Shown: positions 3,724 to 32,669 of the stretch, in pieces | Layout of the letters: each line of letters begins with the position of its first letter | Numbering within the stretch: position 1 is the first letter of the stretch | Source: Vicinamibacterales bacterium | Lineage (GTDB): Bacteria > Acidobacteriota > Vicinamibacteria > Vicinamibacterales > UBA2999 | Direction: 5' to 3' | Length of the DNA: 43,607 bases | Assembly (NCBI GenBank): GCA_035553795.1 | Contig: DATMJU010000733.1 | Coordinates: forward strand, 1 to 43,607 | Notes under the pieces: model-generated | What the model was told of the DNA's origin: nothing | The model's input: the letters and a program-made list of their open reading frames with translations, nothing else | Database searches by the model: none | Program-made: the position numbers and the translations under genes

Positions 3724-6648
3724 ATGAACCTATCGGAGTGGAGCGGCCGTCTTCAGCGGCATTTCAACGAACTGCGAAGCCACCGTTTCGCCGCCGTCGG
3801 CGACAAGCCGCTTTTCGTCCTGGAACACGGCCTTAGCAAGTCGGAATTCCAGCAACTCTCCACGGAAGTTCAGAATCACGTACGGACATCGCCTCCGGAT
3901 GACGCTCATTGGCTTCCCTGGATCGTCTACGCGGCGGAACTCGGATACAGGTACTCCGGCGACGAGTACTGGCAGACGTTCGAAGAAGAGACGCCGGGTT
4001 GGCTTCTCCGAGGCGATCGTCATTGGATTCGAAGGTGCTTCCTCCGGTTCCACAAGGACTTTGGAGGAGCAAAACCGACAGGACCCTGGGCGGAACACTT
4101 CTCAATCATCTGTTGGCCCATCACCCACGCCATTCTTCCCAGGGATCTGCAGCGGCAACTTGCGCGCATTCTGTTTGAATTGCGTCACTCCTTCTCTGCC
4201 GAGCTATTTGAGGCACCCGAGAAACTCGGCGGATTTGTTGCCGCCCGGAGTTGGACGGCAACATCACGCTTTCAGAAACTGGCGGAGGAGCCCCAACTGT
4301 TAGGGCAGATCGCGGCTGCTTTGCTTCTGCAAGGCGAGTCGCGCAGCCGCGGGCTTATCCACGCCCCGACACTTCTGCGGATTACTCAAGACCTCGACGA
4401 CGAACGACGGGCTAGGGACTGGCTCCGCGCCGCACAAAAGACCGCAAATGAGCGAGCCCATGTCCGCGGTTTGGCGTTCGGTCGTGCGACGCGAACTGTC
4501 GTCCGCTCAGAGGAGGCCCGCGCCGAGGTCGCCGCGCTCGGAATCGAGCCTCGATTGATCCTTCGTCCAGCAGATCCTGCCTGCATACGGTGGGACGTCT
4601 CGCTGGAGATTCCTGATCTCTCAAACCTCCTCTTCCGCTTCCCAAGCACGCGAGAGACGCTGACGGGCTCACGGTGTGTTGTCGCCGGAGCGGCAGGCCG
4701 ACCACTGGCTCGCGAACGTGTTCTACACGGCAGTCAGCAAGTGATTCTCGACCGATGGCCCAGCGCCGACGAAGTGCTGCTGCAATTCGAGCGGAGCAAC
4801 GAGCAACTGAACTTCTTGTTCCGCACGGAATGCCTGCTTCGGCCCGGTCCCAATTGGTTGTTTCGAATCGGGTCTGATGGGTTGGCCTACGAACTCCGTA
4901 GTCTTCGAGTGAGAGCTGGCGAGCGGTACTTGTTGCTGACTACCGGAGGCCTGATTGGCGCCGGCGAGCGAGTCGAACCGATTCAGCTGTCCTGTCGCGG
5001 CGTGACCGGCGTGTTGATCGATGTACCAGAGGCGATCGACAGCGACCTCGAAGACAGATTGAAACGCATCGGGCTCTCACCAGCGAAGACGATTGAGGTG
5101 TGGCCAGCAGGGTTGGCTGCCGTGAGCTGGGACGGGGAAGGACACGGCGAATGGTTGGCGTCGGAGCGCGTCTGCCTTGGTATACGGAGTGACCACGCGA
5201 TTGCATCTCTCGCCATCTCGATGAACAGCGTGCTCCAGGCACCGCTCGAATTGAGACCCCTCCGCGCAGGGGAGACGGTCTTCGTGGAACTTCCCCAACT
5301 CCCTGTGGGCCTTCACAAAGTGCGCGTCTCAACACGAGATCAGGCAGGTAGGATCGAGCCGCTTGGCGATCTCGACGTAATGATGCGAATTCGGGAAGCG
5401 AGGCCGTGGTCACCAACGGCGAGTCTGCACGGTCCCTTACTTGTTGACGCCGACCCGCCGAACCCGACGCTCGAGCAGTTGTGGGAGGGACACGCGGCAA
5501 TTGCGATCACCGGTCCGCGCGGCCGTCAGCTGCGATGCCGTGCATCTCTTTACGAGAACGACGGAAGCCCTCCGACGCAGACAATTCAGCTTCCGCCTTT
5601 GCCTCTGCCCGTAGACGAGGAGCAGTGGGCGGCAACCTTCGATCAGCATTTTCGTCGTAGGCCGCAGGTGCAAGGCGCTTATGACGAAGCACGTCTCTGC
5701 ATCCTCGACTTCGCTGCGGAGGAGTTGGGGGCGTTCTCTCTTCGTTGTCCGCGGGACTTCGCCCCACTGAGATGGGCATTCGGTCGCGACGGAGGACAGT
5801 TCAGGCTCCGGCTCATTGACGATAGCGGAGGGGTCAGCGTTGCGGCAGTGTCGCGCTATCAGTATGAAACACCGGCCACCGAGGAACGCATATCCCTGCC
5901 TGCGCCGCACGTCACCGCGGCGTCAGGTGGCCTGTACATCGCCACACATGGCGAGTTCGTCGCCGGTGTGATTGTGCCACCCACCGTCAGGACGTTGGCC
6001 GATCTCGGATGCGTTCCTGTTATTCAGAGTAGCGTCCGCTCGTCGGGTTCTGTGATCCGACTGGTCGAAGTGTATCGGTTGTGGGCGCTGGCGCGCCTCA
6101 CGGGTAATGTCGTTTCATCGCTTCGGCAGCGAACGGTCCTTCAGGCGATCATGACCGCTGCATTTCGGCTGCTGTGTGGCGACGCGTGGGCCAGAGCAGA
6201 AGGCGCGTTTGTTGGAAGCAACAGCGACATCTCGCAACTGACTCGTATCATCTCTCCACGCGTCGGGAGCGATCCTTTCGTAAAGACGTTTGAGAGCGAG
6301 TTGGACCGATTGGCTGCAGCGACGTCGCTCGAGCGAGTGCAGATGTTCACAGCCCTTGTGCAACGCTACCGGCTTGTGGGCGCGCACTTAGGACACACGG
6401 GCGGGCCTGGACCTCGGGGCGTTCAGGCGTCAGACGACGTGGGCGCATTGGTCGAGTTCACGATGAGGCTGGCAAGCGATCCGGTCTGCATCGATTTGCG
6501 CGACAACCGATTTCGGACCAGGCTCCTTCGGTTAATGGATGCTCCAGCCCTGACTAGGGCGGCCAGATGTCTGGTCGTTTATGTAGATCGCATTCTAGGA
6601 TCGCGCACCACGCCAGGCCAGGCGTACGCGGGATGGAGTTGGTCATGA
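3724..6648 (+). CDS. Large hypothetical protein (974 aa); first gene of the helicase operon. DruH-like only by size and position.
   Basis: Uninterrupted 2.9-kb ORF with coding-like composition. Its stop overlaps the next start (ATGA at 6645-6648). I recognise no catalytic motif. Confidence 0.7.
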   Translation: MNLSEWSGRLQRHFNELRSHRFAAVGDKPLFVLEHGLSKSEFQQLSTEVQNHVRTSPPDDAHWLPWIVYAAELGYRYSGDEYWQTFEEETPGWLLRGDRHWIRRCFLRFHKDFGGAKPTGPWAEHFSIICWPITHAILPRDLQRQLARILFELRHSFSAELFEAPEKLGGFVAARSWTATSRFQKLAEEPQLLGQIAAALLLQGESRSRGLIHAPTLLRITQDLDDERRARDWLRAAQKTANERAHVRGLAFGRATRTVVRSEEARAEVAALGIEPRLILRPADPACIRWDVSLEIPDLSNLLFRFPSTRETLTGSRCVVAGAAGRPLARERVLHGSQQVILDRWPSADEVLLQFERSNEQLNFLFRTECLLRPGPNWLFRIGSDGLAYELRSLRVRAGERYLLLTTGGLIGAGERVEPIQLSCRGVTGVLIDVPEAIDSDLEDRLKRIGLSPAKTIEVWPAGLAAVSWDGEGHGEWLASERVCLGIRSDHAIASLAISMNSVLQAPLELRPLRAGETVFVELPQLPVGLHKVRVSTRDQAGRIEPLGDLDVMMRIREARPWSPTASLHGPLLVDADPPNPTLEQLWEGHAAIAITGPRGRQLRCRASLYENDGSPPTQTIQLPPLPLPVDEEQWAATFDQHFRRRPQVQGAYDEARLCILDFAAEELGAFSLRCPRDFAPLRWAFGRDGGQFRLRLIDDSGGVSVAAVSRYQYETPATEERISLPAPHVTAASGGLYIATHGEFVAGVIVPPTVRTLADLGCVPVIQSSVRSSGSVIRLVEVYRLWALARLTGNVVSSLRQRTVLQAIMTAAFRLLCGDAWARAEGAFVGSNSDISQLTRIISPRVGSDPFVKTFESELDRLAAATSLERVQMFTALVQRYRLVGAHLGHTGGPGPRGVQASDDVGALVEFTMRLASDPVCIDLRDNRFRTRLLRLMDAPALTRAARCLVVYVDRILGSRTTPGQAYAGWSWS

Positions 6649-7730
6649 GGCAACTGACGCCCGCTGATGTTCATGCGCTCAAAGTCAGCGAACTGTCACT
6701 TGACCCAGGTGCGGTTGACCTGACGACTGTCGAAGCGCTTGCCGGAGCTCTACGGAGGGCGGCGAGCTTTCTGTGCCCATGCACGGCGGCCACGTTGGTG
6801 CGTGCCGTCGAGCAACCGCTACGTGGGTTGGTGGGCGAGACGGAGGAGATACGAACCTCTATCGAGGAGACCCTTGAGTCCGCGATCGCACATGGCGACA
6901 TCGTCGAGGCCGCGGACATCGATGCCGCCTCGGGAGAGGACAAACCATCGCTGCTCTACGCGGCTCCGCCAAGCTTCGTCGCACGCAGGAGCGGTGCCAT
7001 GATCTTGCTAGGAGTGGCTTCGGACCAACTGTCTGCACTGCCCGACGAATTGCAGCGCCGCATCGAGTACGTCCATCACGTCAGACGGCTACGGCCGCTG
7101 GAGAACGAGGATCTGCGGAACGAGTTATTGGAACTGGGCCTGATTGAACTTCGCTACGACAAATGGTTGAATTCGCCAGCCGCCGAGTCTCCTGCGCAGC
7201 ATGTGGCGCGGCTCAATAGGCTGCTAGACGCGGCGGAGCCATCGCGGGACATTCCTGGACTGTCGCTGCTGGACCCTGAACGGCCTGTGCGTTTCTACCG
7301 CGGGCGCTGGGTCGGCGTGCGCTCGCAAACCGGGCGTTTCGTAGCGCGTCGAGACCAGGCATACGGGGCTCAACTCTGGTGCTACGCGCAGGTACAAGGC
7401 GGTCATCCAGAGCGGATGATCGATTTGCCTGCGCGTAATAGTAGATGGCGTGGCTGCGATGAAGCGTGGCGGCTGCAATTGGCTCTCGACGCGGTACGCG
7501 GAGAGCCTCAGCGCTTCAGGATTCGGAACCATGCCACGAATCCTGTTCTAGAGTTCTTTTCGCCCGTGCCAATGTGGGCACGGCGGCGGTGGGACGCCGT
7601 AGGCGAGCCGGTCCTGAGCTCAGGTTGTCTCTTCGCCTACAGAATTCCGCAGCAGGAGTTGGAGGAGGAAGTCCGCTTCATTCGAACCGAACTGTGGATC
7701 GAAGAACTGTCTCACGGTGCAGTGAAGTGA
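6645..7730 (+). CDS. Hypothetical protein (361 aa), translationally coupled to the 974-aa gene
   Basis: ORF opens at 6567. ATG 6645 forms an ATGA overlap with the upstream stop; ATG 6633 is an alternative. No family recognised. Confidence 0.6.
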   Translation: MRQLTPADVHALKVSELSLDPGAVDLTTVEALAGALRRAASFLCPCTAATLVRAVEQPLRGLVGETEEIRTSIEETLESAIAHGDIVEAADIDAASGEDKPSLLYAAPPSFVARRSGAMILLGVASDQLSALPDELQRRIEYVHHVRRLRPLENEDLRNELLELGLIELRYDKWLNSPAAESPAQHVARLNRLLDAAEPSRDIPGLSLLDPERPVRFYRGRWVGVRSQTGRFVARRDQAYGAQLWCYAQVQGGHPERMIDLPARNSRWRGCDEAWRLQLALDAVRGEPQRFRIRNHATNPVLEFFSPVPMWARRRWDAVGEPVLSSGCLFAYRIPQQELEEEVRFIRTELWIEELSHGAVK

Positions 7731-14575: not shown

Positions 14576-14581
14576 CAGAAT

Positions 14582-16738
14582 TCAGTCTGCAAGCGCCGCT
14601 GTCACGAACTCAACTCCAAGCTGGGTCGAGTGTGCCACCTCGTCGATCTGCTCGATGTCGGCGCTCACGGGTTCGTCCAATGAGTGTTGGCCGAACGTGT
14701 ACGGCGAGGCGCCCTCGGCAAACTCATTAGAGTCGTCGTCTGGAAGCACCACTCGCGCTCCATGACGCACAGGCGAAGCCAAGGAGTGACTAGCTACCGC
14801 TGTGAGCACCTCCTCATTCTGGATTCGCTTGACCACCCACCGCGTGAACCAGAAGTCAACAATCCGATTAGCCGCATCGGATCCATCTGGAACCAGATAC
14901 GAAGGCCTCGACTGCACGCCAAGAAGAATCTCCCTAAAGTTTTTTGCTAGAGGAATGCCGTAAACGAGTCTGGGGCTGCCGTGCTGCAGCAGCAGGTTCG
15001 ACGGGAGCCCAGCAGCATCCAGCGCGGCGCGAACCTTTCTCAGTTTGGGATTCACTCCTTCCCCAAAGATGCTGTTAACGGGCCGACCACGTTGCAGCCG
15101 TCCGAGGAGAGGTTCGAGTGAGGCGAGCGTGTCACGCGAGAAATGATATGACCCGTACCCGGCCGTTCGTCCTAGGCACTCGTACGACACCATCGCGTTC
15201 TCTGGTCCGCCGACGGCAGCCGCTGGCATCTTGAGCCGGTTGTACTGGCTTGGTGCAACTCCATAGAGACTAGTGGTCCCTAGCAGCACCAGACGTGGAG
15301 GCCGGGTGATCGTTCGACCGGCCATAGACGAAGCGATGATGCTGGATGCAGTCTTGTACCGGCGCGCGTATTCGGCTCGCACTTGTGGGCTTGCCATCAG
15401 CAGTGACACGAGCTTTCCGCCCAGCAAATGGTTGTACGGTGCGATGGCGCCACAGACCGTGATATCCATCACCTCGACGCCGACATGCGCGGCCTTTGTC
15501 TGTCGAAGAACCGTCGCGACTGCGCGCTTAAAGCCCTCTGTTGCGAGTGCTCGGGTCCAAGACTCCATGCGACGCCAGGCGGTGCGGGCTGCCTGTAATT
15601 GGATCCGAGCCGCGAGAAGGTCCGCCAACGTCGAGGCCCGCTTGGAACGAAACAAATGAGTCTTCGCTTGATTGGACCAAACGGTATTCTGTCCCCGACC
15701 GGCCGCTTTGTGTGCCTGCTGTTCTGGGTAGAGACGATGAATCCGGCGCTCCGCCCCCGCCAGATCCCGCAGCTTCGCAACGTCGTTTACGGTCGGGTGC
15801 CGCAGCGAACGCCTAGGTATGACTCCGTCCTTTACAAAGTCATTGGTGTAGACGTCGCTCAGTAGTCGTTCCAACGACGTGTCCAGCCATTGCATCCACG
15901 ATCCGCGAGAGCCGTTACGCATCGCCGTTATGAGATGGTCCGGCGTCCAGCCGATCCACCGGTCACGCACCGACAGCTGAACGATCGGGCTGCCAAGTGC
16001 CGCAATCGCGACGACTGGGTGATTTGCGGCAGCACGGTCGCGCACGAGGAAAAAGACCTTTCTGCCCGGCGTGCTCTGGTACGTCGTGGTCCATGTGTGC
16101 CGAAAATATCGCCACACGTCAAACAGATCGAGGCCAGTAAACTCGCAGGTCGTTCCCGCGCGTGCAACCTGAAGATAGGGATCGACCGCTTCACGCAGCG
16201 CCGTTCCATCTGAAGTCTCAGTCGGGCGGGGAACACTCGACAGCCGTTTCGCCAGATCGCGGCCGTCGCGCATCAGCGAAAAGATAGAGTGCCATTCGCC
16301 GTTGTGAAGTCGCCGATGCTCCATCTCTGCTATGAAGCGCATGACCCCCGGTTGCCGCAGTTGCGCGTCGCGCTCAATGACGTGTGCCGCGCGGACACGT
16401 GCTCTTTCCTCAACCGCGTCCATGCCGTTCATGGGCGCAAGCGCAAGGATTCTGCGGCTCGTTAGCCGCAGCTTCCAACCTTGCGCTCGGAGATCGCACA
16501 AGACGTTAACGCAGAAGATTAGTGGGACCGTCGTTCGGCTACCGGCCTTGCGCGCCCTCTCAATGCCATTCGCTCGAGCCGTCCGAACCGCTGCGGCCTG
16601 CTCGGATACGCGTGTGGAGCGTACGAGTTCTGTCACAACTGAGCGCAGCGTTTTTCGTGGATGCGAGTAACGCCACAACTGAGCCGGCGTGACGTCGATC
16701 CAGGCGAGGCGTTGATCTGGGCGCTGCGTCGACGTCAT
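14582..16738 (-). CDS. DUF4338-like (DruA-like) protein, 718 aa
   Basis: PGRKVFFLVRD...VAIAALGSPIVQLSVRDRWIGWT, GGKLVSLL, LVLLGTTSLYG and YECLGRTAGYG parallel the DUF4338 pattern I recall (LRYFV...LGFGAAAWKTAPRDRFIGWT...LLETFV...GxTxGRG). ATGA-type overlap with the upstream ATPase gene. Confidence 0.6.
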   Translation of the reverse strand: MTSTQRPDQRLAWIDVTPAQLWRYSHPRKTLRSVVTELVRSTRVSEQAAAVRTARANGIERARKAGSRTTVPLIFCVNVLCDLRAQGWKLRLTSRRILALAPMNGMDAVEERARVRAAHVIERDAQLRQPGVMRFIAEMEHRRLHNGEWHSIFSLMRDGRDLAKRLSSVPRPTETSDGTALREAVDPYLQVARAGTTCEFTGLDLFDVWRYFRHTWTTTYQSTPGRKVFFLVRDRAAANHPVVAIAALGSPIVQLSVRDRWIGWTPDHLITAMRNGSRGSWMQWLDTSLERLLSDVYTNDFVKDGVIPRRSLRHPTVNDVAKLRDLAGAERRIHRLYPEQQAHKAAGRGQNTVWSNQAKTHLFRSKRASTLADLLAARIQLQAARTAWRRMESWTRALATEGFKRAVATVLRQTKAAHVGVEVMDITVCGAIAPYNHLLGGKLVSLLMASPQVRAEYARRYKTASSIIASSMAGRTITRPPRLVLLGTTSLYGVAPSQYNRLKMPAAAVGGPENAMVSYECLGRTAGYGSYHFSRDTLASLEPLLGRLQRGRPVNSIFGEGVNPKLRKVRAALDAAGLPSNLLLQHGSPRLVYGIPLAKNFREILLGVQSRPSYLVPDGSDAANRIVDFWFTRWVVKRIQNEEVLTAVASHSLASPVRHGARVVLPDDDSNEFAEGASPYTFGQHSLDEPVSADIEQIDEVAHSTQLGVEFVTAALAD

Positions 16739-18213
16739 CGAGGCCTCAGGAACGCGGTAAGAGCATCACTCCACGCGCGTCGCAGACGCGCTGCGTGGCT
16801 CCGCTCTTTGTCACCGCGGGCTTCCAAGTCGGCGCGTGCAGCGGCCAAGATGAGACGCTCAATTCGCTCCGGTCCGCAGCCACCGGTTTCGGAAGCGCGC
16901 TGGTAGATCTCGGAAAAGAACGCGTGGTTTGTGTTAAGGCAGACGACGATTGAGTTACGTTCGACGCGCACTGTATAGAAGTCGGGCTCAGGAAGCGCCT
17001 TGTATTCCAGCCGATACCGAAGGCCGTTGGACGCGATTCTCCTCGATGCCAGGGAAGCGGGGGGTGCGAGAAGGGCGTCCTGCCGCGTCATGGTTACAAG
17101 GTGGGGAGGGGTGTCAAGGCGCTTGACGCGATCGAAAGCTTCTCTTACGCGGCGATTCAGCGTACGAGCGATCGCCTCCATGTCCGGCGAGAGCATTAGC
17201 TTTAATTCGGTTCTGGGATTCACACCCTGCTTGCTGTGCGTAACACCGAACAGTTCATCCAGGCTTGGAGAAAACCGCAACTCACAACGCCACCAATCGT
17301 CGTAGTTCTCGCGACGTTTACCACCGAACAAATACCAGCCATAGTCGATCTCACGTCCGGCACGAACGATTGATACACCAGCGCCGCCAACGATGCCTTT
17401 CTGCCTTTTGTCCTCGACCGACCACCGATGCCACTTGTCAACGGGAAGCTCGGAAAACTGCACCTCGATCACTGAAGGCCGTCCGTCAAAACCGACAACT
17501 TCGTAGCGCATGGGAGAACCGTACGACGTCGCTCCCCTGACCGCGGATCTTGCGTCGATAAACAACGGATCAAGGGCGTGTACTGCAACACCGTTGATTG
17601 AAATGCGCGCTCCGCTCCAAATCGTGTGGCGGTATACCCGTCCGAGGGTTACATGCAATCGTCGACTGAGCGTCTCTGACCTGAGGCGCCCCAAGCGGTC
17701 ACAACGCGTCCAGAGAATCAGCGTACCTGAGCGCCAACCTCGGGGAGCTACCCAGTTGGGTAACCGTGCGCGACGAGGCGTCGGAATGCATCGTAGTCGG
17801 CCCGTCGCCACTTCATCGACATCGAGGTACGAGTGGTAGACGTCGTTCGGTCGTTGCCACGAATACACCTCGAGACGTCGGGAGTAGCTCACCGAACTGT
17901 TGGGCAGGCCCATACCGAAACGTCCGAGCCCTGAGCGATCCCCGAACCTGTTCGTACCGCCAAACTGGAGTGCGCGACCGATGGCTGTCGGCGACATGCC
18001 GTCGCCGTCGTCGATCACGCCCAATATGGTCGTGTGGCTGCCCTCTGAGTCCACTTCTTTCAGCAGGATGTCGACGTGCCTGGCATTTGCCTGAATCGAA
18101 TTGTCGACCAGCTCGGCGACCGCCGCAGCAAGGCTTCGATAACCTGTGTCTCGTGTCGCTACCACGAAATGCTCAGCAGCGACGATGGGGACTACCCACG
18201 CATGGGAGTTCAT
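16735..18213 (-). CDS. GHKL-superfamily ATPase (HATPase_c_3, MORC/paraMORC-like)
   Basis: N box AELVDNSIQA, G1 box IDDGDGM and G2 box GLGRFGMGL. 492 aa. 4-nt overlaps with both neighbours. Confidence 0.75.
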   Translation of the reverse strand: MNSHAWVVPIVAAEHFVVATRDTGYRSLAAAVAELVDNSIQANARHVDILLKEVDSEGSHTTILGVIDDGDGMSPTAIGRALQFGGTNRFGDRSGLGRFGMGLPNSSVSYSRRLEVYSWQRPNDVYHSYLDVDEVATGRLRCIPTPRRARLPNWVAPRGWRSGTLILWTRCDRLGRLRSETLSRRLHVTLGRVYRHTIWSGARISINGVAVHALDPLFIDARSAVRGATSYGSPMRYEVVGFDGRPSVIEVQFSELPVDKWHRWSVEDKRQKGIVGGAGVSIVRAGREIDYGWYLFGGKRRENYDDWWRCELRFSPSLDELFGVTHSKQGVNPRTELKLMLSPDMEAIARTLNRRVREAFDRVKRLDTPPHLVTMTRQDALLAPPASLASRRIASNGLRYRLEYKALPEPDFYTVRVERNSIVVCLNTNHAFFSEIYQRASETGGCGPERIERLILAAARADLEARGDKERSHAARLRRAWSDALTAFLRPR

Positions 18214-18485
18214 CCGCGCGCCCTGCGCTTTCGGATCTGTTTTGACGTGTGGGGCAACTGTTCGGCGGAGATCGAACTCTGGTAGGCAGATTGGAGCGCC
18301 CGAATCAACTGCATCAGCGCACCGGGCTTCACCGGGTACGCTCCCGAGAGAATCTGCGAGACCCGTGCCTGGGTGACTCCCAGGCGCTTAGCAAGTTCCG
18401 CCTGCGTGCGACAGCCCATCGCCGCGGCGAGAACTCGAACGTCCTCCGCGGTGATCCCGTCGTCAGCGCTGGGTTGATTCGGCAA
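18210..18485 (-). CDS. XRE-type helix-turn-helix regulator (91 aa)
   Basis: TQAELAKRLGVTQARVSQILSG is a classic HTH_3 signature. Apparent TTG start at 18485, so the start is uncertain. First gene of the minus-strand operon. Confidence 0.65.
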   Translation of the reverse strand: MPNQPSADDGITAEDVRVLAAAMGCRTQAELAKRLGVTQARVSQILSGAYPVKPGALMQLIRALQSAYQSSISAEQLPHTSKQIRKRRARG

Positions 18486-19525: not shown

Positions 19526-19547
19526 CCTCACGTCGCCCGACGTGAGG
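19526..19547. repeat. Perfect 10-bp inverted repeat cctcacgtcg-cc-cgacgtgagg upstream of the DUF932 gene
   Basis: Read directly. It lies 49 bp upstream of ATG 19596, after the 19434 stop. Confidence 0.6.
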
Positions 19548-19595
19548 CTTCGTTCCACCTCGTCGCCCTCAGGGCACGCAGAAAGGAGCACTCCA

Positions 19596-20702
19596 ATGAA
19601 CGGGACAGGTGTGTCTGCTGTCAATGCGTACACGGCTCACCGGGAATGGGCATCGCGCCCACCCGACGAACGGTACGCCAGTGTTCAAGCCCTCTATGAT
19701 GCGGCACACGCACGTCGCCTCCGCACCGAAGAGCGCACCATTGAGACCGTCGCACTCAGGACCGAGGCGGTGGCATCCGACGCACTCGCGCTACGCGACA
19801 CGTCGGGTCGCCCGGCCGCTCTCACGCACTGGAGCTTCGAGCAGCTCGCCGGCATTGCCGCTGCGCCGCCGAAGTACCTCCGAACGCTCCCCGCGGCGAT
19901 CGCGTCCGACGCGATCAACTACGGGTTGCGGCGTCAACGTCGCGAAGAGCACCAGCTCCTCGTGGACCGCGACGATCCGTGCACCGTCCACGCGGTCACC
20001 TCTCCGAGGTACGCGCGGGTCCATCACGACGAGCTGGCCAACCGGGTGCTCGACCTCATGGCCCAACACCCGGCCTGGTCCCTGCCGCTCGCCTACAAGG
20101 ACGGCGTGTACGGCGCTGAACGGGTTCCGTTCGGCGCCTACCTGGGAGACCGAGACATGTTCCTGTTCCTCGTGGACGGCAACCGCGATCTCGAAGACCC
20201 GACCGATACGTCGCACGCTGCCTTGTTCCGCGGTTTCATTCTCCGGAACAGCGACGTCGGTGCCGCCGCCCTGACCCTGGATGTGTTCCTGTTCCGCGCC
20301 GTCTGCGGCAACCACATCATCTGGGGCTTTCAGCACGTCGTCGGATTCCGGCGCCGACACGTGGGTGCGTCGATTCAAGAGGTCTGGACCACGTCGCTCG
20401 ACAGTGTCCGGACCGCGCTCGACGCCGACCCTGCGCACGATCGCCTCGTTCTCCTGCGGGCCACGTCCCAGGAGCTCGGGCCGACCCGTGACGCGGTTGT
20501 TGATGCGGCCGTTCAGCGACTCGAGCTGTCGCAGAAGCAGGCCGCCGAGGCGTACACGCTGGCAGAAGCGTTCGAGTCGAATCCCCGTTCGGTCTGGGGC
20601 TACGTGCAGGGGCTCACGCGTTTGAGCCAACGCACGCCCTGGCAGGATGGACGTTTCACTCTCGATCGCGCCGCCAGCCGCCTCCTGACCACGGTCCACT
20701 AG
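19596..20702 (+). CDS. DUF932-family protein (mobile-element associated)
   Basis: FILRNSDVGAAALTLDVFLFRAVCGNHIIWG matches the DUF932 core (NSxDGSxA...R.VCxN). ATG 19596 is preceded by gaaaggag. The ORF opens at 19542. Confidence 0.7.
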   Translation: MNGTGVSAVNAYTAHREWASRPPDERYASVQALYDAAHARRLRTEERTIETVALRTEAVASDALALRDTSGRPAALTHWSFEQLAGIAAAPPKYLRTLPAAIASDAINYGLRRQRREEHQLLVDRDDPCTVHAVTSPRYARVHHDELANRVLDLMAQHPAWSLPLAYKDGVYGAERVPFGAYLGDRDMFLFLVDGNRDLEDPTDTSHAALFRGFILRNSDVGAAALTLDVFLFRAVCGNHIIWGFQHVVGFRRRHVGASIQEVWTTSLDSVRTALDADPAHDRLVLLRATSQELGPTRDAVVDAAVQRLELSQKQAAEAYTLAEAFESNPRSVWGYVQGLTRLSQRTPWQDGRFTLDRAASRLLTTVH

Positions 20703-20849
20703 ACCAGGTCATTCGCCGCTCGGGCGCAGCCCCGCGGCTCCTTCCACGCACAACGGGCGTCGGCACACGCCACGTCCTTCACCCGCCCCTCGCGACCTCC
20801 GTCGCGCAGGTGGCCGCCTTCGCTCCCAGAGCCGGGCGCTCTGCCGGAG

Positions 20850-21837
20850 GTGTCTGCCATGCGCGACGGATCCACACGCCGACGAAGCACGAGCCCACAG
20901 TCAGCGGCCGGGTTGATCGCCATCAACCACGTTCACGACTGGCGACGACACGGCCGTCTCGATGACCTTCGCACGTTAGCCGAAGGGGCGAACGATCTCA
21001 CGTGGTCGCGCGGGCTGCTGCACGCGTTGCTCGAAGAACTCCACATCAGCGACGACTTCGACGTGCTCGTCGGGCGTGTGGCCCACCTCCCCGCGAGCCA
21101 ATATCCTCGCCTGCTCGCGACAGCGGTGCTCCTGAGACACAGCTGGTGTCCTCAGGACCTGTCGCGCACAGCCGCGCGACTCGGACTGCCACGTCCTGCC
21201 GGCGGTTCTCCGCCACTCACCTCCGAATCACCCACACCTCGACCGCGGACACCGCCGCCGCGAGATCACGCGTGCGTCGCTCCCAGAGCCGCGTACGCAC
21301 CAGCGCTGAAAGGAGAAGTCATGCTGAATCCGTCTGTCTCGCCTTCGGCTCCAGCACGCGGTCACCGCGTGCGGGAACTCGTCTGCGCCTACCGACCGTT
21401 GCGCGACGGTGACGGCCGCGTCGTCGACGTGCCCACCGTGGTGCTGAAGGACCCACGCACCGCCGCCGCCGTCCTCGCGCCGCTGATCGCGGACCAGCCC
21501 GTTGAGGTCTTCGGCGTCGCGTGCCTCTCCACGAAGAATCGTCTGCTTGCCTGGCACGTGCTCTCGCGCGGAACACGTGCGAGCACGCCTCTCGATGCCG
21601 GATGTCTTCGTGCCCGCGTGTCTCACACCGGGCACGACTGGCCTGATGGTCGTTCACAACCATCCGAGCGGCGATCCCACATTAGGCCCAGACGATGCAC
21701 GACTGACGTTGCGCCTGTGTGCCGCGGCAGACGTGCTCGACATGCCGCTGCTCGACCACCTGATCGTCGGTGACGAGCACCGGCACTACAGCTTCCGCGA
21801 AGCCGGAGTGCTCGGAGCCACTCCGACAACGAGGTGA
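20850..21837 (+). pseudogene. radC: RadC-like JAB/MPN-domain gene interrupted by a frameshift, with an unusual N-terminal extension
   Basis: Frame of 20850 gives ...VEVFGVACLSTKNRLLAWHVLSRGT. Frame +1 gives SMPDVFVPACLTPGTTGLMVVHNHPSGDPTLGPDDARLT...LLDHLIVG (JAMM motif HNHPSG), ending at 21837. The frame switch lies between about 21573 and 21595. A strong internal start exists at gaaaggagaagtcATG (21321). Confidence 0.65.
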
Positions 21838-23077: not shown

Positions 23078-23275
23078 GGACGGAGGCCATGAGCAAGTAG
23101 TGGCGTCAGCCATGCGCGATTCCCGAGCAAATTTCCGTTTCGCGGGACTGGCCGGTTGTGCCACACTGCGCCGGGCAGGCAGCTCATCCGCGGCCTGCCG
23201 GAGCAACACGTGCCGGGCCGACTTCAGAGGGGTGCTGGAGATTGGCAGGAAGACCGACGGCAGCAGAGGAGCTTT

Positions 23276-24067
23276 ATGGCGCGACCACTGATACTGGTAA
23301 CGAATGATGACGGCGTGAATGCTCCAGGGCTAAGAGCCGCGGCACTCGTCGCACATGTCTTTGGCGATGTCTTGGTTGCGAGTACGAGGGATCCGCAGAC
23401 TGCTATGGGGCGCTCGTATCCAAAAACTCCAGACACCGGGATCATCGAAGAATACGACATGCGTTTGGACGACGGCACGAAGCTGGAGGCGTACTCAATC
23501 GTCGCCTCACCAGCGCAAGCGGTTTCGTACGCCATCCTGGAGCTGGCGCCGCGAATGCCCGACATCTGCGTGAGCGGCATCAACTTTGGCGAGAACCTCG
23601 GAACGACGCTCACTGGTAGTGGCACCGTTGGAGCCGCGATGGAGGCGGACTCATACAACATTCCAGGGATCGCGATTTCACTCCAGATCGAAGGAGGAGA
23701 CACTCCGGAGGCTGTCAACTGGGCGCCCTCTTCGCACTTTCTTGCGCGATTCTTGGACGAAGTGATTACGCACGGTCTCCCGAAGGGCGTTTCGATTCTG
23801 AACGTTAACATTCCACGCAACGCCTCCGAATCGACAGAGATCAGGGTGACTAGGGACAGTCGGCAACCGTATTTTGTTTTTGCCAAGCCGAAACGCCTTT
23901 CGCGAGACCAAGGCGCAAAACTTCCTGTCGTCGTCGAACTCAATCGCGACACGCTCGAGCCCGACAGCGACATACAGGCGTTGGTGCTTGACCACGTAGT
24001 GTCTGTAACGCCGTTGAGTGCTCACCTCGCCTCTGGCAATCCATGGGTGCCTCGGTTCGCGAAGTGA
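23276..24067 (+). CDS. surE: SurE-like 5'/3'-nucleotidase
   Basis: ILVTNDDGVNAPGL, PDICVSGINFGENLG and GSGTVGAAMEA are the SurE signature blocks. ATG 23276 follows gaggag (23266-23271). The ORF opens at 23156. Confidence 0.8.
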   Translation: MARPLILVTNDDGVNAPGLRAAALVAHVFGDVLVASTRDPQTAMGRSYPKTPDTGIIEEYDMRLDDGTKLEAYSIVASPAQAVSYAILELAPRMPDICVSGINFGENLGTTLTGSGTVGAAMEADSYNIPGIAISLQIEGGDTPEAVNWAPSSHFLARFLDEVITHGLPKGVSILNVNIPRNASESTEIRVTRDSRQPYFVFAKPKRLSRDQGAKLPVVVELNRDTLEPDSDIQALVLDHVVSVTPLSAHLASGNPWVPRFAK

Positions 24068-27000: not shown

Positions 27001-27723
27001 CTTCACACGGGATGGATCGGTTCGGTGGCGTTCTCGCCATCTGGCCTGAGACTGGCGTCGGGAGCGGACGATCGTACGATCGTTGTTCTTGACGCCGTCC
27101 ATTTCACACCCATCAACCGCAGACGGACGAACGAGGGCCGCATCTCATCGATAGTATTTGCCGCAGAAGACGTGATTGTCTGTTCTAGCGAAGACGGCAC
27201 GATTCGAGTGCTCGCTGTTCCCGACCTTAGTGAGCGGGGCTGTCACGCGCTGGGCGCCGGACCGCTATACGCAGTAGGGTTGATCGAAAAAGGCACCGCT
27301 GCTATCGCGGCTGGCGTTGGAGGCAAAGTGTGGCGCGTGCCGATGGACAGTGTCTCGCCAGCCGTTCCCGTAGCGGAATTGCCGGTAAACGCGATTTGGA
27401 GCATCGACGTCAGCCCCGACGGTCAGATGGCCGCCTTGGGGGCCGACGACGGAAGTGTAGTGTTGCTTGAGGTGGACAGCAAGCAAGCGCGGACCATTGC
27501 GCAGGCGCACCAACGACAGGTGTGGTGCGTGCGCTGGTCACCGAATGGAAGCACGATAGCGACTGCGAGCGAAGACGGTGAAGTTGCGCTTTGGAATCCG
27601 CAGGGTGCGAGCAAGGCACGCCTAAGGCCGCCACTGTTGTACCACGGACTGCGCATCACGGGCTCTGAGGGGCTATCGCCCGCGGAACGACGACACCTTC
27701 TAGCGATGGGAGCTGTTCCGTGA
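24043..27723 (+). CDS. STAND NTPase: N-terminal alpha/beta (possibly TIR-like) domain, then NB-ARC, a pentapeptide-repeat segment and WD40 repeats (about 1,220 aa)
   Basis: P-loop GLGGQGKTS (about 24604-24630), Walker B LLVLDNAE, LVTSRE, and GNPLAIKLL (GLPL-like). Pentapeptide run VDLHGVDFTGLPLDSVDFRDIDVRDADCSSSEF (25747-25870). WD40 signatures include GNDAVIRVWD, GSEDQTLRFWH, ASDDGEVRISD, GADDRTIVVLD and ASEDGEVALWN. Alternative starts are GTG 24064 (GTGA overlap with the surE stop) and ATG 24088. Confidence 0.8.
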   Translation: MGASVREVSAHGAIAMPLRIFVLGTKSDRVERSELVRLIESTSASASVASVQWPCEGPLPWSHQSDSCIIIVLVTRDGLTSERGWSQALTSNQIDTERTVVLFLHGLDPTTQRDLKFRYAKTLGSKTIADSSRELQKTVEGLIADLKRSATRWDGIGLDTRRLLGRQEELNAAISMANPPTKSIAIVGLGGQGKTSFAAALSDALSSAYSDAPWVSLRNGPTLDWVAQRIAHLLGAEISVADATAETATTNILSMLAARRVLLVLDNAETVFNSRGGAASAENAQDLSSHYEYFFRSLAQARLDSLVLVTSRELPNAYRVFPETLRVFRLPGLDEPAVAQLMANSGVTLEARLLSKVHARFLGNPLAIKLLCGLSLDRGAAVVTELLAADAPVSDDISTLMDEHVSRLSREERLFLSKLAWEGGGVEWSVLRELAWPVDSSTAQRHLDHLSRVLLVDSNDVEIAITHPLLREHLVEDVKRQVRLGLLLDDHAGLPQVLSTLLLVNPLADDYVQTLQVAAVESLVADVRRQLGTKHKLRGRILALLEIARRSAHPGYIVANLVEIARRGNVDLHGVDFTGLPLDSVDFRDIDVRDADCSSSEFRSCVFGDNFGPVTAVARVAAGQELLAAGTFEGFVRLWTADGELQSVVKCADDWLSAISPVARDGVSYFAAVDGAIGSVRWSNLSVTTLLNVDAQVRGLAVVNDVLVAACADGSIRVVDLNTGRARKLMVATFRLKVVRAIPGTARSVVVLGGDSGDLLVFDVEGGKELSRFTNGTAWVRDALFDAAGSTLFTADDDGRVRAWERQANDEFRLKTEAGHSHRVWCLALDQHSARLFSAGNDAVIRVWDANSLKQLDLYEGHGSWIRSMALLDDGRVLASGSEDQTLRFWHTEDGKCFRRRTGYARRVFAIGFASEDVLICGTGDHKLVKFDLGGDTPRTSYFDGHRDQVFSLAVERRSNRVASASDDGEVRISDASTGDSLFAERLHTGWIGSVAFSPSGLRLASGADDRTIVVLDAVHFTPINRRRTNEGRISSIVFAAEDVIVCSSEDGTIRVLAVPDLSERGCHALGAGPLYAVGLIEKGTAAIAAGVGGKVWRVPMDSVSPAVPVAELPVNAIWSIDVSPDGQMAALGADDGSVVLLEVDSKQARTIAQAHQRQVWCVRWSPNGSTIATASEDGEVALWNPQGASKARLRPPLLYHGLRITGSEGLSPAERRHLLAMGAVP

Positions 27724-28385
27724 AGTTCTCTTCCTCGTTTCGACGTTGGATTCTGGCCCTTGGCGCGTCGCTGGGCGCACCATACCTCTGGCGTCGGTGG
27801 GCGAGGGTCATTTTGGGACTTGTGTGGCTATTGATTGTTACCGCTATCGCATTTGGCGTGACGGTGATTTCGGAGCGTATTAGAGATCCGAAGGTTCTCT
27901 GGGCGACGATCTTCGCCTCCTCTTTAGGGAGCATTGCGGCTGGACTCTTTGGGGCTGTGGCGACAGTGCTTAGTCTTGAGGTGCTTAGAGCAAGGCGCGT
28001 TGAGCGAGAGGAGAGAGCCACGTTCCTGAGTAGATTGCGGTCGCGCGATCGAGGGACGGTCTCGGCGGCGATCGAAGAACTGCGCAGTCGGCGATTACTC
28101 GACAGTGGATACCTTGACGGGGCCGACCTTCGTGGCGTGGTTTTCGCGGAGACGGACCTGCGAGGGATGCGCGCGGTGGCTGCCCGTTTTGACGGTGCGG
28201 ATCTGACCAACGCAGTTCTCTATGGCGCGGATATCCGCTTCGCGTCCCTGAGGGATGTGACGCTATCGGGAGCAACCAATCTACGTCTATGCAAATGGCA
28301 CGGAGCAGATCTGACAGGCGTTGACGGTTCTCTGCTTCGGGAATGCGGTCTCCCTCATGTCGCTCAGATCCAAGTTTCCAGATAG
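27720..28385 (+). CDS. Membrane-anchored pentapeptide-repeat protein (221 aa)
   Basis: GTGA overlap with the STAND stop. N-terminal hydrophobic helices (ILGLVWLLIVTAIAFGVTVI and ATIFASSLGSIAAGLFGAVATVL), then GADLRGVVFAETDLRGMRAVAARFDGADLTNAVLYGADIRFASLRDV. Confidence 0.7.
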   Translation: MKFSSSFRRWILALGASLGAPYLWRRWARVILGLVWLLIVTAIAFGVTVISERIRDPKVLWATIFASSLGSIAAGLFGAVATVLSLEVLRARRVEREERATFLSRLRSRDRGTVSAAIEELRSRRLLDSGYLDGADLRGVVFAETDLRGMRAVAARFDGADLTNAVLYGADIRFASLRDVTLSGATNLRLCKWHGADLTGVDGSLLRECGLPHVAQIQVSR

Positions 28386-31059: not shown

Positions 31060-31355
31060 TGGCGCGGTCCAACGTGCCGCAGCTCATCCGTGGTGTCAAG
31101 GCAATTCCGGTCCACCCCTTTCGGCACCGCTCTCGGGCCACTTTGAAGCCCTTGGTAGCGCCCGATATGCGCGAGGTGAAGTGAGCAGCAGGGGCGACTT
31201 CGGTAGCTGCTTCATTCAGCGAACGTCGGTCGGGAGCCACCGGCCGCTTTAGGGGTAAGATGGCCATTACTCACCACTGGCCTGCCGGCGCGGAGCACGC
31301 GCCGAGTTGGCCCTGCCAAGCGGAATCCAGCCACAACCGAAAGGAGGAACTCTGT

Positions 31356-32579
31356 ATGGGAACCGTGTATTCACGGAAGCGGTCGCCGTACCTCTGGATC
31401 AAGTACTACCAGCACGGTCGGCCTGTTCGAGAGAGCACAGGCACGAAGAACGAAGTCGTCGCACGCCGTATGCTGCGTGCGCGCGAGGGTGACGTCGAGC
31501 GCGGTATCCCGATCGATCCCAAGGTCGGCCTCGTCACCTTCCGCAACGCCGCCGAGGACATGCTCAACGACTACAAGGCGAACCGCAAGCGGACGTACGT
31601 CGATGCCAAGCGGCGGATCAACAAGCACCTCGCGCCGTTCTTCGGGAACAGACGGCTGTCGTCGATCACGGCGAGCGACATCCGTGCGTACATCGCGAAG
31701 CGCATGGCCGACACGTACCTGGCCCGGCCAGCGCGGCGGGTCAGACATCGCAATGGCACCTCGCAGGATCTGCCGGAGCTCCGAAGGCCTGTGTCAGCTG
31801 GTGAGATCAATCGCGAGCTGACCGTCCTCAAGCGGATGTTCAGCCTGGCGATCGAGGCGGGGAAACTGCACCACAAGCCGCACTTCGCCATGCTGCGAGA
31901 GGACAACGTCCGCGTCGGCTTCTTTGAGCGTGAGCAGTACGAAGCCGTGCTCTCCCATCTCCCCGCGGGCATGCGGCCGGTGGTGACGTTCGCGTACGTC
32001 ACGGGATGGCGAATCAACAGCGAGGTGTTGCCGCTCCGGTGGAGGCAGGTCGATCTCAACGTTGGGGAGGTCCGGCTCGACCCGGGCACGACTAAGAACC
32101 GAGAGGGGCGGGTGTTCTACCTGACTCCCGAACTGCATCAGCTCCTGAAAGAGCAGCGCGCCGCGGCGGACGACATCCAGCGCCAGAAGAAGATGATCGT
32201 CCAGCACGTCTTCTTCCATCGCGACACGACCAAGGCAGGGGCCTTCGGGCACTGGGCGGGGAAGGGGATCTCGGAGCACGGCTTCTACCACGCCTGGCGA
32301 ACGGCGCGGATGGCCGCCGGCTGCCCCGGCAGCATCCCGCACGACTTCAGGCGCACTGCCATCCGGAACATGGTGCGGGCCGGGATTCCGGAGCGGGTGG
32401 CCATGAAATTGAGCGGCCACAAGACCCGCAGCGTTTTTGATCGCTATAATGTCGTGAGCGACGGAGATCTGCGGGACGCTGCTCGTCGACTTGGGCACAC
32501 TGGCGGGCACACTGGCCCATCCTTGGCCTTCGGCGGCGGCGAGAAAACGCAAAATTCTTACGAAATCCACGCACGGTGA
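31356..32579 (+). CDS. int: Tyrosine recombinase / phage-type integrase
   Basis: aaaggagg lies upstream of ATG 31356 (ORF opens at 31260). The N-terminal arm-binding-type region is GTVYSRKRSPYLWIKYYQHGRPVRESTG. Catalytic blocks are TGWRINSEVLPLRW (R), HDFRRTAIRN (HxxR) and GHKTRSVFDRYN (H...Y). The stop TGA at 32577-32579 lies inside the tRNA. Confidence 0.9.
   Translation: MGTVYSRKRSPYLWIKYYQHGRPVRESTGTKNEVVARRMLRAREGDVERGIPIDPKVGLVTFRNAAEDMLNDYKANRKRTYVDAKRRINKHLAPFFGNRRLSSITASDIRAYIAKRMADTYLARPARRVRHRNGTSQDLPELRRPVSAGEINRELTVLKRMFSLAIEAGKLHHKPHFAMLREDNVRVGFFEREQYEAVLSHLPAGMRPVVTFAYVTGWRINSEVLPLRWRQVDLNVGEVRLDPGTTKNREGRVFYLTPELHQLLKEQRAAADDIQRQKKMIVQHVFFHRDTTKAGAFGHWAGKGISEHGFYHAWRTARMAAGCPGSIPHDFRRTAIRNMVRAGIPERVAMKLSGHKTRSVFDRYNVVSDGDLRDAARRLGHTGGHTGPSLAFGGGEKTQNSYEIHAR
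32491..32515 (+). repeat. Right copy of the 25-bp double GGGCACACTGG element (candidate arm-type site), inside the integrase 3' end
   Basis: Identical to 177-201. It encodes GHTGGHTG in the integrase C-terminal tail. Confidence 0.6.
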
Positions 32580-32669
32580 GGTGGCCGAGTGGCCGAAGGC
32601 GGCGGTTTGCTAAACCGTTGTAGGGCCTTTAAAGTCCTACCGAGGGTTCGAATCCCTCCCTCACCGCCA
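32575..32669 (+). tRNA. tRNA-Ser (anticodon GCU), class II with a long variable arm and encoded CCA
   Basis: Acceptor GGTGAGG/CCTCACC, D arm GCCGAGTGGCCGAAGGC, anticodon loop TTGCTAA, a long variable arm, T arm GAGGG-TTCGAAT-CCCTC, discriminator G and CCA. Confidence 0.9.

Follow-up and report, generated by a model that had tools for sequence, protein, structure and literature searches.

A MORC-like ATPase and long-form DruA encoded as a conserved gene pair, and their probable role in a variant type I Druantia system of a Vicinamibacterales bacterium

A stretch of DNA of 43,607 nucleotides (the window), the 43.6-kb contig DATMJU010000733.1 from a metagenome-assembled genome (MAG) of Vicinamibacterales (Acidobacteriota), was analysed with regard to a three-gene operon on its minus strand. 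The operon encodes an XRE-type helix-turn-helix (HTH) protein, a MORC-like ATPase of the GHKL type and a long form of DruA (DUF4338), and it converges on a plus-strand cassette for DruX, DruD, DruE and a Cas4-like nuclease; "DruX" is a name coined in this analysis for a 974-aa protein. In about 250 related loci, the genes for the ATPase and the long DruA are neighbours with hardly an exception, and they form an uncatalogued module. The operon of the window probably provides the DruA arm in a variant of the type I Druantia anti-phage system, the effector arm of which would be DruX, DruD, DruE and the nuclease.

Related loci were collected in three samples. For the genome sample, one genome per species was scanned (185,579 in all); relatives of the ATPase are encoded in 289 of them, and 80 loci, spread over more than ten phyla, were retrieved. 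The metagenome sample comprised 80 loci selected by DruX, and the viral sample five IMG/VR loci selected by DruA. Loci were selected with short peptide patterns, so that one clade was sampled; open reading frames (ORFs) were called mechanically, and flanks were limited to 10 kb. Many loci are MAGs with shared ancestry, and the counts given below are not phylogenetically independent.

In 78 of the 80 species-level genomes, the gene directly downstream of the ATPase gene on the same strand is a long druA (product of about 660–740 aa), and the two genes are separated by a median of 2 nt; the two exceptions are a contig end and a truncated ATPase. The ATPase gene was found upstream of druA in all five viral-database loci, and also in all 18 of the DruX-selected metagenome loci that carry a long DruA together with upstream DNA. 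Throughout the sampled bacterial clade, the long DruA is accompanied by a MORC-like ATPase encoded just upstream, usually a few nucleotides away, and the pairing put forward in an earlier prediction from the window sequence alone (the original prediction) is therefore strongly conserved. The distance matrices of the two proteins correlate closely (r = 0.94, Mantel p = 0.001), and ATPase and DruA have tightly co-diverged. A strict rule that a long DruA occurs if and only if the ATPase is present was considered and rejected: it holds in the sampled bacterial loci and is broken by a haloarchaeal plasmid.

That no system with a GHKL–DUF4338 pairing had been described was borne out by the literature search and by the PADLOC and NCBIfam models. 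No paper linking Druantia or DruA to a GHKL or MORC ATPase was retrieved in that search, and PADLOC 2.0 and NCBIfam contain no model for the MORC-like ATPase. A survey of the YprA family (PMC12458937) and the 2026 papers on Druantia III do not treat DruA. In annotation pipelines the ATPase carries no name beyond "ATP-binding protein", and the gene has therefore been overlooked as a component of these systems.

The identity of the ATPase was assessed by sequence and by predicted structure. Its HATPase_c_3 match lies well above threshold (Table 1), and in a comparison of a profile of 26 homologues with the PDB, MORC2 was the best match (E 7e-12), followed by MORC4, MORC3 and then MutL. The AlphaFold2 model (mean predicted local distance difference test score, pLDDT, 78.6) gave MORC3, DNA-bound MORC2 and MORC4 as top Foldseek matches (about E 1e-12, about 380–410 columns, template modelling scores 0.42–0.54), with SMCHD1 and Hsp90 scoring close behind; the aligned span covers the GHKL domain and the S5-fold transducer. 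The Bergerat-fold residues for binding and hydrolysing ATP, namely E34, N38, D68, G70, G72, the glycines of the G95–G102 stretch (G95, G97, G100 and G102) and T164, are invariant in the 26 homologues, and so is K328. Membership in the MzaB family was rejected (66.7 bits against an NCBIfam cutoff of 850), as was membership in the MutL family, the models of which scored far below their cutoffs. Because MORC proteins head both the sequence and the fold searches, the motifs are invariant and the MzaB and MutL models fall far below their cutoffs, the label "MORC-like GHKL+S5 ATPase" is justified by sequence and model comparison, at a level at which the searches do not separate MORC proper from the paraMORC families. 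The GHKL assignment of the original prediction is thus upheld.

The assignment of the 718-aa protein as DruA (DUF4338) was equally well supported, both the Pfam and the PADLOC profile scoring well above threshold (Table 1). Pfam DruA/DUF4338 matches the protein in two stretches, the PADLOC DruA1 match covers profile positions 33–669 of 675, and the protein is already named DruA by NCBI. Short DruA proteins align only to residues 208–267 and 421–643 of the long form, which therefore adds a helical insertion (residues 268–420, about 155 aa) and about 100 N-terminal residues. Invariant positions of DruA include R233/D234, G441/K442 and a block at 551–568. The description of the protein as an enlarged DruA holds in that it is larger than the canonical protein (about 400 aa) and carries the insertion and the longer N-terminus; it is no oddity, since a full-length PADLOC model of its own and the NCBI name mark it as a catalogued long form.

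The fold of DruA was examined with an AlphaFold2 model (pLDDT 77). The full-length Foldseek search against the PDB gave no significant match; the best hit was a GNAT-fold malonyl-CoA decarboxylase (E 0.17), and several GNAT enzymes appeared among the weak matches at E 4–9. No PDB match was obtained by sequence, and no Pfam cross-match to GNAT families at E values up to 10. The order of strands and helices around the invariant PYNxLLGGK loop in the model fits the beta4-loop-alpha3 layout of GNAT proteins, and the canonical Q/RxxGxG/A motif is not present. This predicted order is consistent with, and no proof of, the published assignment of DUF4338 as a GNAT domain (PMC10853773). Against BFVD, the model matched uncharacterised giant-virus proteins from Faunusvirus (E 6e-8) and Yasminevirus (E 4e-6) as well as a tailed-phage fragment (E 3.6e-3).

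The three minus-strand genes are intact, and their coordinates and 4-nt overlaps were confirmed: the HTH/ATPase junction is an ATGA start/stop overlap (GGATGAAC, 18210–18213), and so is the ATPase/druA junction (CGATGACG, 16735–16738). The protein motifs quoted in the original prediction are all present in the translations. The NCBI annotation uses shorter products (ATPase 476 aa, DruA 616 aa): relative to the conserved N-termini, its starts lie further downstream by 16 codons for the ATPase gene and by 102 codons for druA. The long starts of both genes are supported by N-terminal residues conserved among homologues, sequence that the NCBI starts would remove. The public start annotation of the ATPase gene and druA also conceals the ATGA overlaps. 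A promoter and terminator scan gave nothing usable, and no terminator-like site was detected at the junction between the nuclease gene and druA; with only 6 nt between the convergent stop codons, the two transcripts probably overlap. Comparably tight convergent junctions were seen in L012, L045 and L089.

The first gene of the operon had been described as a dedicated regulator, a description that was not sustained. The HTH_3 match of its 91-aa product is clear (PF01381, 32.7 bits against a cutoff of 23), and weak HigA/HipB-like matches were obtained as well. When the upstream ORFs were searched iteratively with a hidden Markov model (HMM), homologues turned up in no loci other than those of the nearest relatives (L001/L002 and L010/L011/L013). 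Other loci carry varied HTH genes or none upstream of the ATPase, and a Pfam scan of 92 ORFs in that position returned mixed families (HTH_17 in 8, HTH_23 in 7, HTH_3 in 3 and HTH_31 in 3). The HTH gene was accordingly rejected as a core component of the module; the XRE protein would be a local, replaceable transcriptional regulator.

The plus-strand cassette was characterised by profile searches. The stop codon of druX and the likely start codon of druD form an ATGA overlap at 6645, and the genes for DruE and the nuclease overlap as well; the DruD1 alignment begins at residue 27 of the longest druD ORF. DruX gave no match in Pfam, PADLOC or NCBIfam. The possibility that it is a fused or divergent DruB/DruC was rejected (hmmsearch E above 0.1, hhalign probability below 1%). 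No DruB or DruC was found by PADLOC in the plus-strand ORFs tested or in a six-frame search of the window, which also revealed no second GHKL gene, no sigma-like gene and no second or short DruA. DruE contains DEAD, Helicase_C and MZB domains; its PDB relatives are two DEAD/DEAH-box helicases of about 2,000 aa (9tu7, E 1e-83; 9wae, E 1e-67) and YprA (6znp). The nuclease matches PDDEXK_1 with 55.9 bits (cutoff 22), PADLOC DruK with E 3e-10 and PADLOC Cas4 models; in NCBIfam, the Cas4 equivalog TIGR00372 scored below its cutoff (E 2e-7; 31 bits, cutoff 65). One N-terminal cysteine and a C-terminal CX2CX5C motif in its sequence suggest an iron-sulfur cluster. DruX adjoins DruD–DruE in most related loci, and the nuclease gene follows DruE in most loci of the DruX type. 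A link between Cas4-like nucleases and YprA-type helicases has been noted earlier (PMC5704561).

The relation between the pair and DruE was surveyed in the genome sample. DruE is encoded within 10 kb of the pair in 40 of the 80 loci, in colinear (17), divergent (13), convergent (6) or tandem (4) arrangement, and is absent from that range in the remaining 40. The opposing operon is real in the window, where two operons converge, and it represents a minority layout (6 of the 40 DruE-linked loci): in the closest relatives, L001, L011 and L013, the HTH, ATPase, DruA, DruX, DruD and DruE genes follow one another on one strand, and the layouts are interspersed on the DruA tree. In L008, HTH, ATPase and long DruA genes are divergent to true DruB, DruC, DruD and DruE genes.

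The DruX-selected metagenome loci gave the complementary view. A short DruA (about 390–460 aa; 523 aa where the N-terminus is extended) is encoded directly upstream of DruX in 42 of the 80 loci, always colinear and in no case (0/42) with the ATPase. In five loci a convergent long druA is cut by the contig end; apart from these and the long-DruA loci described above, the remainder end at contig edges. Every sampled DruX–DruD–DruE cassette with enough flanking DNA has a DruA, and the window holds no other DruA; the DruA of its cassette is therefore the one encoded on the minus strand.

The pair was never seen alone: a partner cassette is present in all 49 genome loci with full 9-kb flanks. DruE is encoded in 26 of these, and DruX–DruD at the edge of the fetched DNA in one more. 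Fifteen loci have only a second GHKL ATPase (about 610–650 aa), which is often accompanied by a sigma-70-like protein (about 200 aa); six have a DruX-like protein and an SNF2 helicase; and one has DndH/SspG/SspF-like genes. In 7 of the 80 loci of the whole genome sample, ATPase–DruA is followed not by DruD–DruE but by an SNF2 helicase and a protein of about 1000 aa that is distantly homologous to DruX; DruX-like proteins therefore bridge two kinds of helicase. A prophage and Roseobacter plasmids carry the pair together with a second GHKL gene and without DruE in the vicinity; on the plasmids, the ATPase encoded directly upstream of DruA is a member of the second GHKL family. Genes for a sigma-70-like protein and a second HATPase_c_3 ATPase flank the pair in L004 (13886–16404), L015, L051, L053, L054, L061, L062, L096 and L179. 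Two further plasmids connect the long DruA with DndFGH-like genes: on a haloarchaeal plasmid it is followed by such genes and is not accompanied by the ATPase, and on a Hymenobacter plasmid a fused DruA of 1198 aa is followed by SspG- and DndH-like genes. Both agree with an earlier report of DUF4338 fused to or beside DndF (PMC10853773). The ATPase–DruA pair is portable, joining SNF2-helicase, DndFGH-like, or sigma-like plus second-GHKL cassettes.

The original prediction had offered a bipartite Druantia variant and an independent module as alternatives. Both descriptions hold, and they are not mutually exclusive: in the window, the Druantia cassette has no DruA other than that of the pair, and in about half of the genomes it accompanies other partner cassettes with no DruE within 10 kb.

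In the mechanism proposed for the window, the system would consist of a front end, formed by DruA and the MORC-like ATPase, and a back end, formed by the DruX–DruD–DruE motor and the Cas4-like nuclease. The ATPase may form a complex with the long DruA; like MutL and MORC proteins, and in keeping with an earlier proposal for prokaryotic MORC proteins (PMC2292703), it would most likely dimerise on ATP binding and clamp DNA as a matchmaker. It would hold DruA, a putative GNAT-like enzyme or sensor, on the DNA and couple the recognition of foreign DNA by DruA to the helicase and nuclease, by which this DNA would be unwound and degraded. Several points weigh against this assignment. Complex formation and the clamp or matchmaker role are analogies, not results, and the fold and Pfam comparisons given above do not establish a GNAT fold for DUF4338. 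DruE is not encoded within 10 kb in half of the genome loci, so that DruE is not a general requirement of the pair; short-DruA systems run without a GHKL protein, and the ATPase is therefore not needed for DruA–DruE coupling as such. The long DruA of the haloarchaeal plasmid includes the insertion and yet has no ATPase. Shared ancestry and the many MAG-derived loci mean, finally, that locus counts are not independent events.

The same observations bear on the rival explanations. The ATPase–DruA operon could be a self-sufficient defence module that merely sits beside the Druantia cassette and has no functional link to DruE, as might be expected from the 40 genome loci lacking DruE in range, from a prophage and a plasmid that have the pair without DruE, and from the pair's own transcription unit, the orientation of which relative to DruE has changed many times. 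This is considered unlikely, since the cassette of the window would then be left without a DruA when such cassettes otherwise always have one, since all 49 full-flank loci carry a partner cassette (DruE, SNF2, DndFGH-like or second GHKL), and since the distances of DruA and DruX correlate (r = 0.66, Mantel p = 0.001). The constant company of helicases and nucleases also points to an action directed at DNA, and thereby away from a reading of DruA as a GNAT-type toxin (acetylating aminoacyl-tRNA, for example) that is restrained by the ATPase and the XRE protein in an abortive-infection or toxin–antitoxin module. GNAT toxins exist, XRE genes commonly head toxin–antitoxin operons, and the HigA/HipB-like matches of the HTH protein would fit; the XRE gene is not conserved, however, and DruA, at 660–740 aa, is far above the size of GNAT toxins, which makes this explanation highly improbable.

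A role in self-marking was weighed as well. Here the MORC-like clamp would load DruA as a GNAT-type acyltransferase, host DNA or a DNA-bound protein would be marked, and the helicase–nuclease would attack unmarked DNA. The naming of DUF4338 as a GNAT domain (PMC10853773), the GNAT-like order of the DruA model with GNAT enzymes enriched among its weak Foldseek matches, and the exchange of the pair among unrelated motor and nuclease cassettes, in the manner of modification modules, speak for it. So does a new "m6A-like" motif that a preprint reports from nanopore sequencing of E. coli with type I Druantia, a system without a methylase (10.1101/2024.04.14.589459). The signal itself is unexplained, however, no DruA is known to carry out a modification, the fold match to GNAT is not significant and the canonical motif is missing, so that self-marking is regarded as unlikely. 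A further reading, in which ATPase and long DruA would form a portable front end that is driven by ATP, serves for marking or sensing, and through its clamp-loaded GNAT-type enzyme provides self/non-self discrimination to at least three unrelated effectors (DruE, SNF2 and DndFGH-like), is speculative and is given a low probability. If true, the front end would parallel restriction-modification, with acyl groups in place of methyl groups, and a first molecular role would be defined for both DruA and prokaryotic MORC proteins. Assignment of the operon as the DruA arm of the Druantia system remains the best explanation.

The locus lies in a mobile setting. The integrase abuts the tRNA-Ser gene, and the GC content of the window, about 0.60 on the left and about 0.70 on the right, rises at about 31–33 kb; the Druantia locus is therefore placed within a tRNA-integrated island of at least 31 kb. 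Relatives of the locus adjoin integrases, type IV secretion system genes, a relaxase or prophage genes. The STAND NTPase–WD40 gene may be a second defence gene of the same island; it is flanked by SurE-like (23156–24067) and pentapeptide-repeat (27720–28385) genes. DUF932 and RadC-like genes (19542–21773), which are typical of leading regions in conjugative elements, adjoin the HTH–ATPase–DruA operon. A 363-aa protein encoded at 1436–2527 has no family match, and weak homologues of it are encoded beside ATPase–DruA or DruX in L052, L063, L071 and L167. The coordinates of all features are collated in Table 1.

Table 1. Features of the window and of selected related loci (coordinates of related loci refer to the locus named).
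Feature	Position	Strand	Evidence or remark
XRE-type HTH regulator, 91 aa	18210–18485	-	First operon gene; TTG start; HTH_3 E 7.9e-8; HTH_31 E 1.2e-7
MORC-like GHKL+S5 ATPase, 492 aa	16735–18213	-	HATPase_c_3 PF13589 E 3.2e-19
Long-form DruA, 718 aa	14582–16738	-	PADLOC DruA1 PDLC00001 E 1.8e-177; PF14236 E 5.2e-35
Junction between convergent stop codons (nuclease gene, druA), 6 nt	14576–14581	.	Direct reading
DruX, 974 aa, uncharacterised	3724–6648	+	Position held by DruB and DruC in canonical systems
DruD	6645–7730	+	PADLOC DruD1 E 4.8e-120; likely ATG start at 6645, longest ORF from 6567
DruE, YprA-family superfamily 2 helicase with MZB/DUF1998, 1857 aa	7750–13323	+	PADLOC DruE1 1929 bits, full length
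Cas4/AddB-like PD-(D/E)XK nuclease, 421 aa	13310–14575	+	PDDEXK_1 PF12705 E 7.8e-15
STAND NTPase with WD40 repeats, 1226 aa	24043–27723		Weak NB-ARC/NACHT matches
Tyrosine integrase	31260–32579	+	Phage_integrase E 6e-19
tRNA-Ser(gct)	32575–32669	+	ARAGORN; abuts integrase; integrase and tRNA-Ser (31260–32669) form the island boundary
SNF2-type loci	L069 13589–20711; also L042, L059, L067, L081, L082, L088		
Long DruA linked to DndH/SspG/SspF-like genes	L079 13465–21352; L178 8608–18437; L095 10692–22943		

Type I Druantia is among the broadest-acting anti-phage systems, and the literature search returned neither a mechanism for it nor a role for DruA. The ATPase emerges as an obligate partner, so far overlooked, of the DruA proteins of a large clade; across cassettes that differ in their motors, the only component that stays the same is DruA, whether or not the ATPase accompanies it. 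The ATPase belongs to a wider context in that prokaryotic MORC-type ATPases are likely ancestors of the eukaryotic MORC chromatin regulators.

Among known systems, the MORC/paraMORC systems likewise combine a GHKL+S5 ATPase with a superfamily II helicase and a nuclease on mobile islands; prokaryotic MORC and paraMORC genes were found to associate with such helicases and with nucleases of the restriction-endonuclease fold, and a MutL-like role in DNA manipulation was proposed (PMC2292703). The window differs in that it has no DNA methylase, in that its helicase is of the YprA/DruE type and in that its constant neighbour is DruA, which is absent from that account. MutS–MutL–UvrD–MutH mismatch repair offers a functional analogy only, with a GHKL ATPase placed between a recognition protein, a helicase and a PD-(D/E)XK nuclease; no homology extends beyond the GHKL domain, and the setting in the window is defence, not repair. 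In the MZA system, MzaB is the best PADLOC and NCBIfam match of the ATPase (residues 15–120 and 18–219 of 492, respectively), and none of the other window proteins scanned matches an Mza model. The DndFGH/SspFGH-like modules carry a DruA-type domain on a translocase-based restriction module (PMC10853773), in place of which the window has DruE.

The closest comparisons are with other Druantia loci. Canonical type I Druantia (DruABCDE; L097, Pseudomonas putida plasmid pKF715A) shares with the window the DruA core, DruD, DruE and the setting in a mobile element; on pKF715A, DruA is short and no GHKL gene is present. The window lacks DruB and DruC, in place of which it encodes the unrelated 974-aa DruX, and adds a Cas4-like nuclease after DruE and the MORC-like ATPase before the long druA; its genes form two convergent operons and not one co-directional operon. 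The short-DruA version, common in metagenomes, matches the window in its DruX, DruD, DruE and nuclease families and in their order, and differs in its DruA, which lacks the insertion and the N-terminal extension of the long form, in the absence of a GHKL gene from all 42 loci and in its invariably colinear genes. Natural versions of one system with and without the ATPase are thus now available for comparison.

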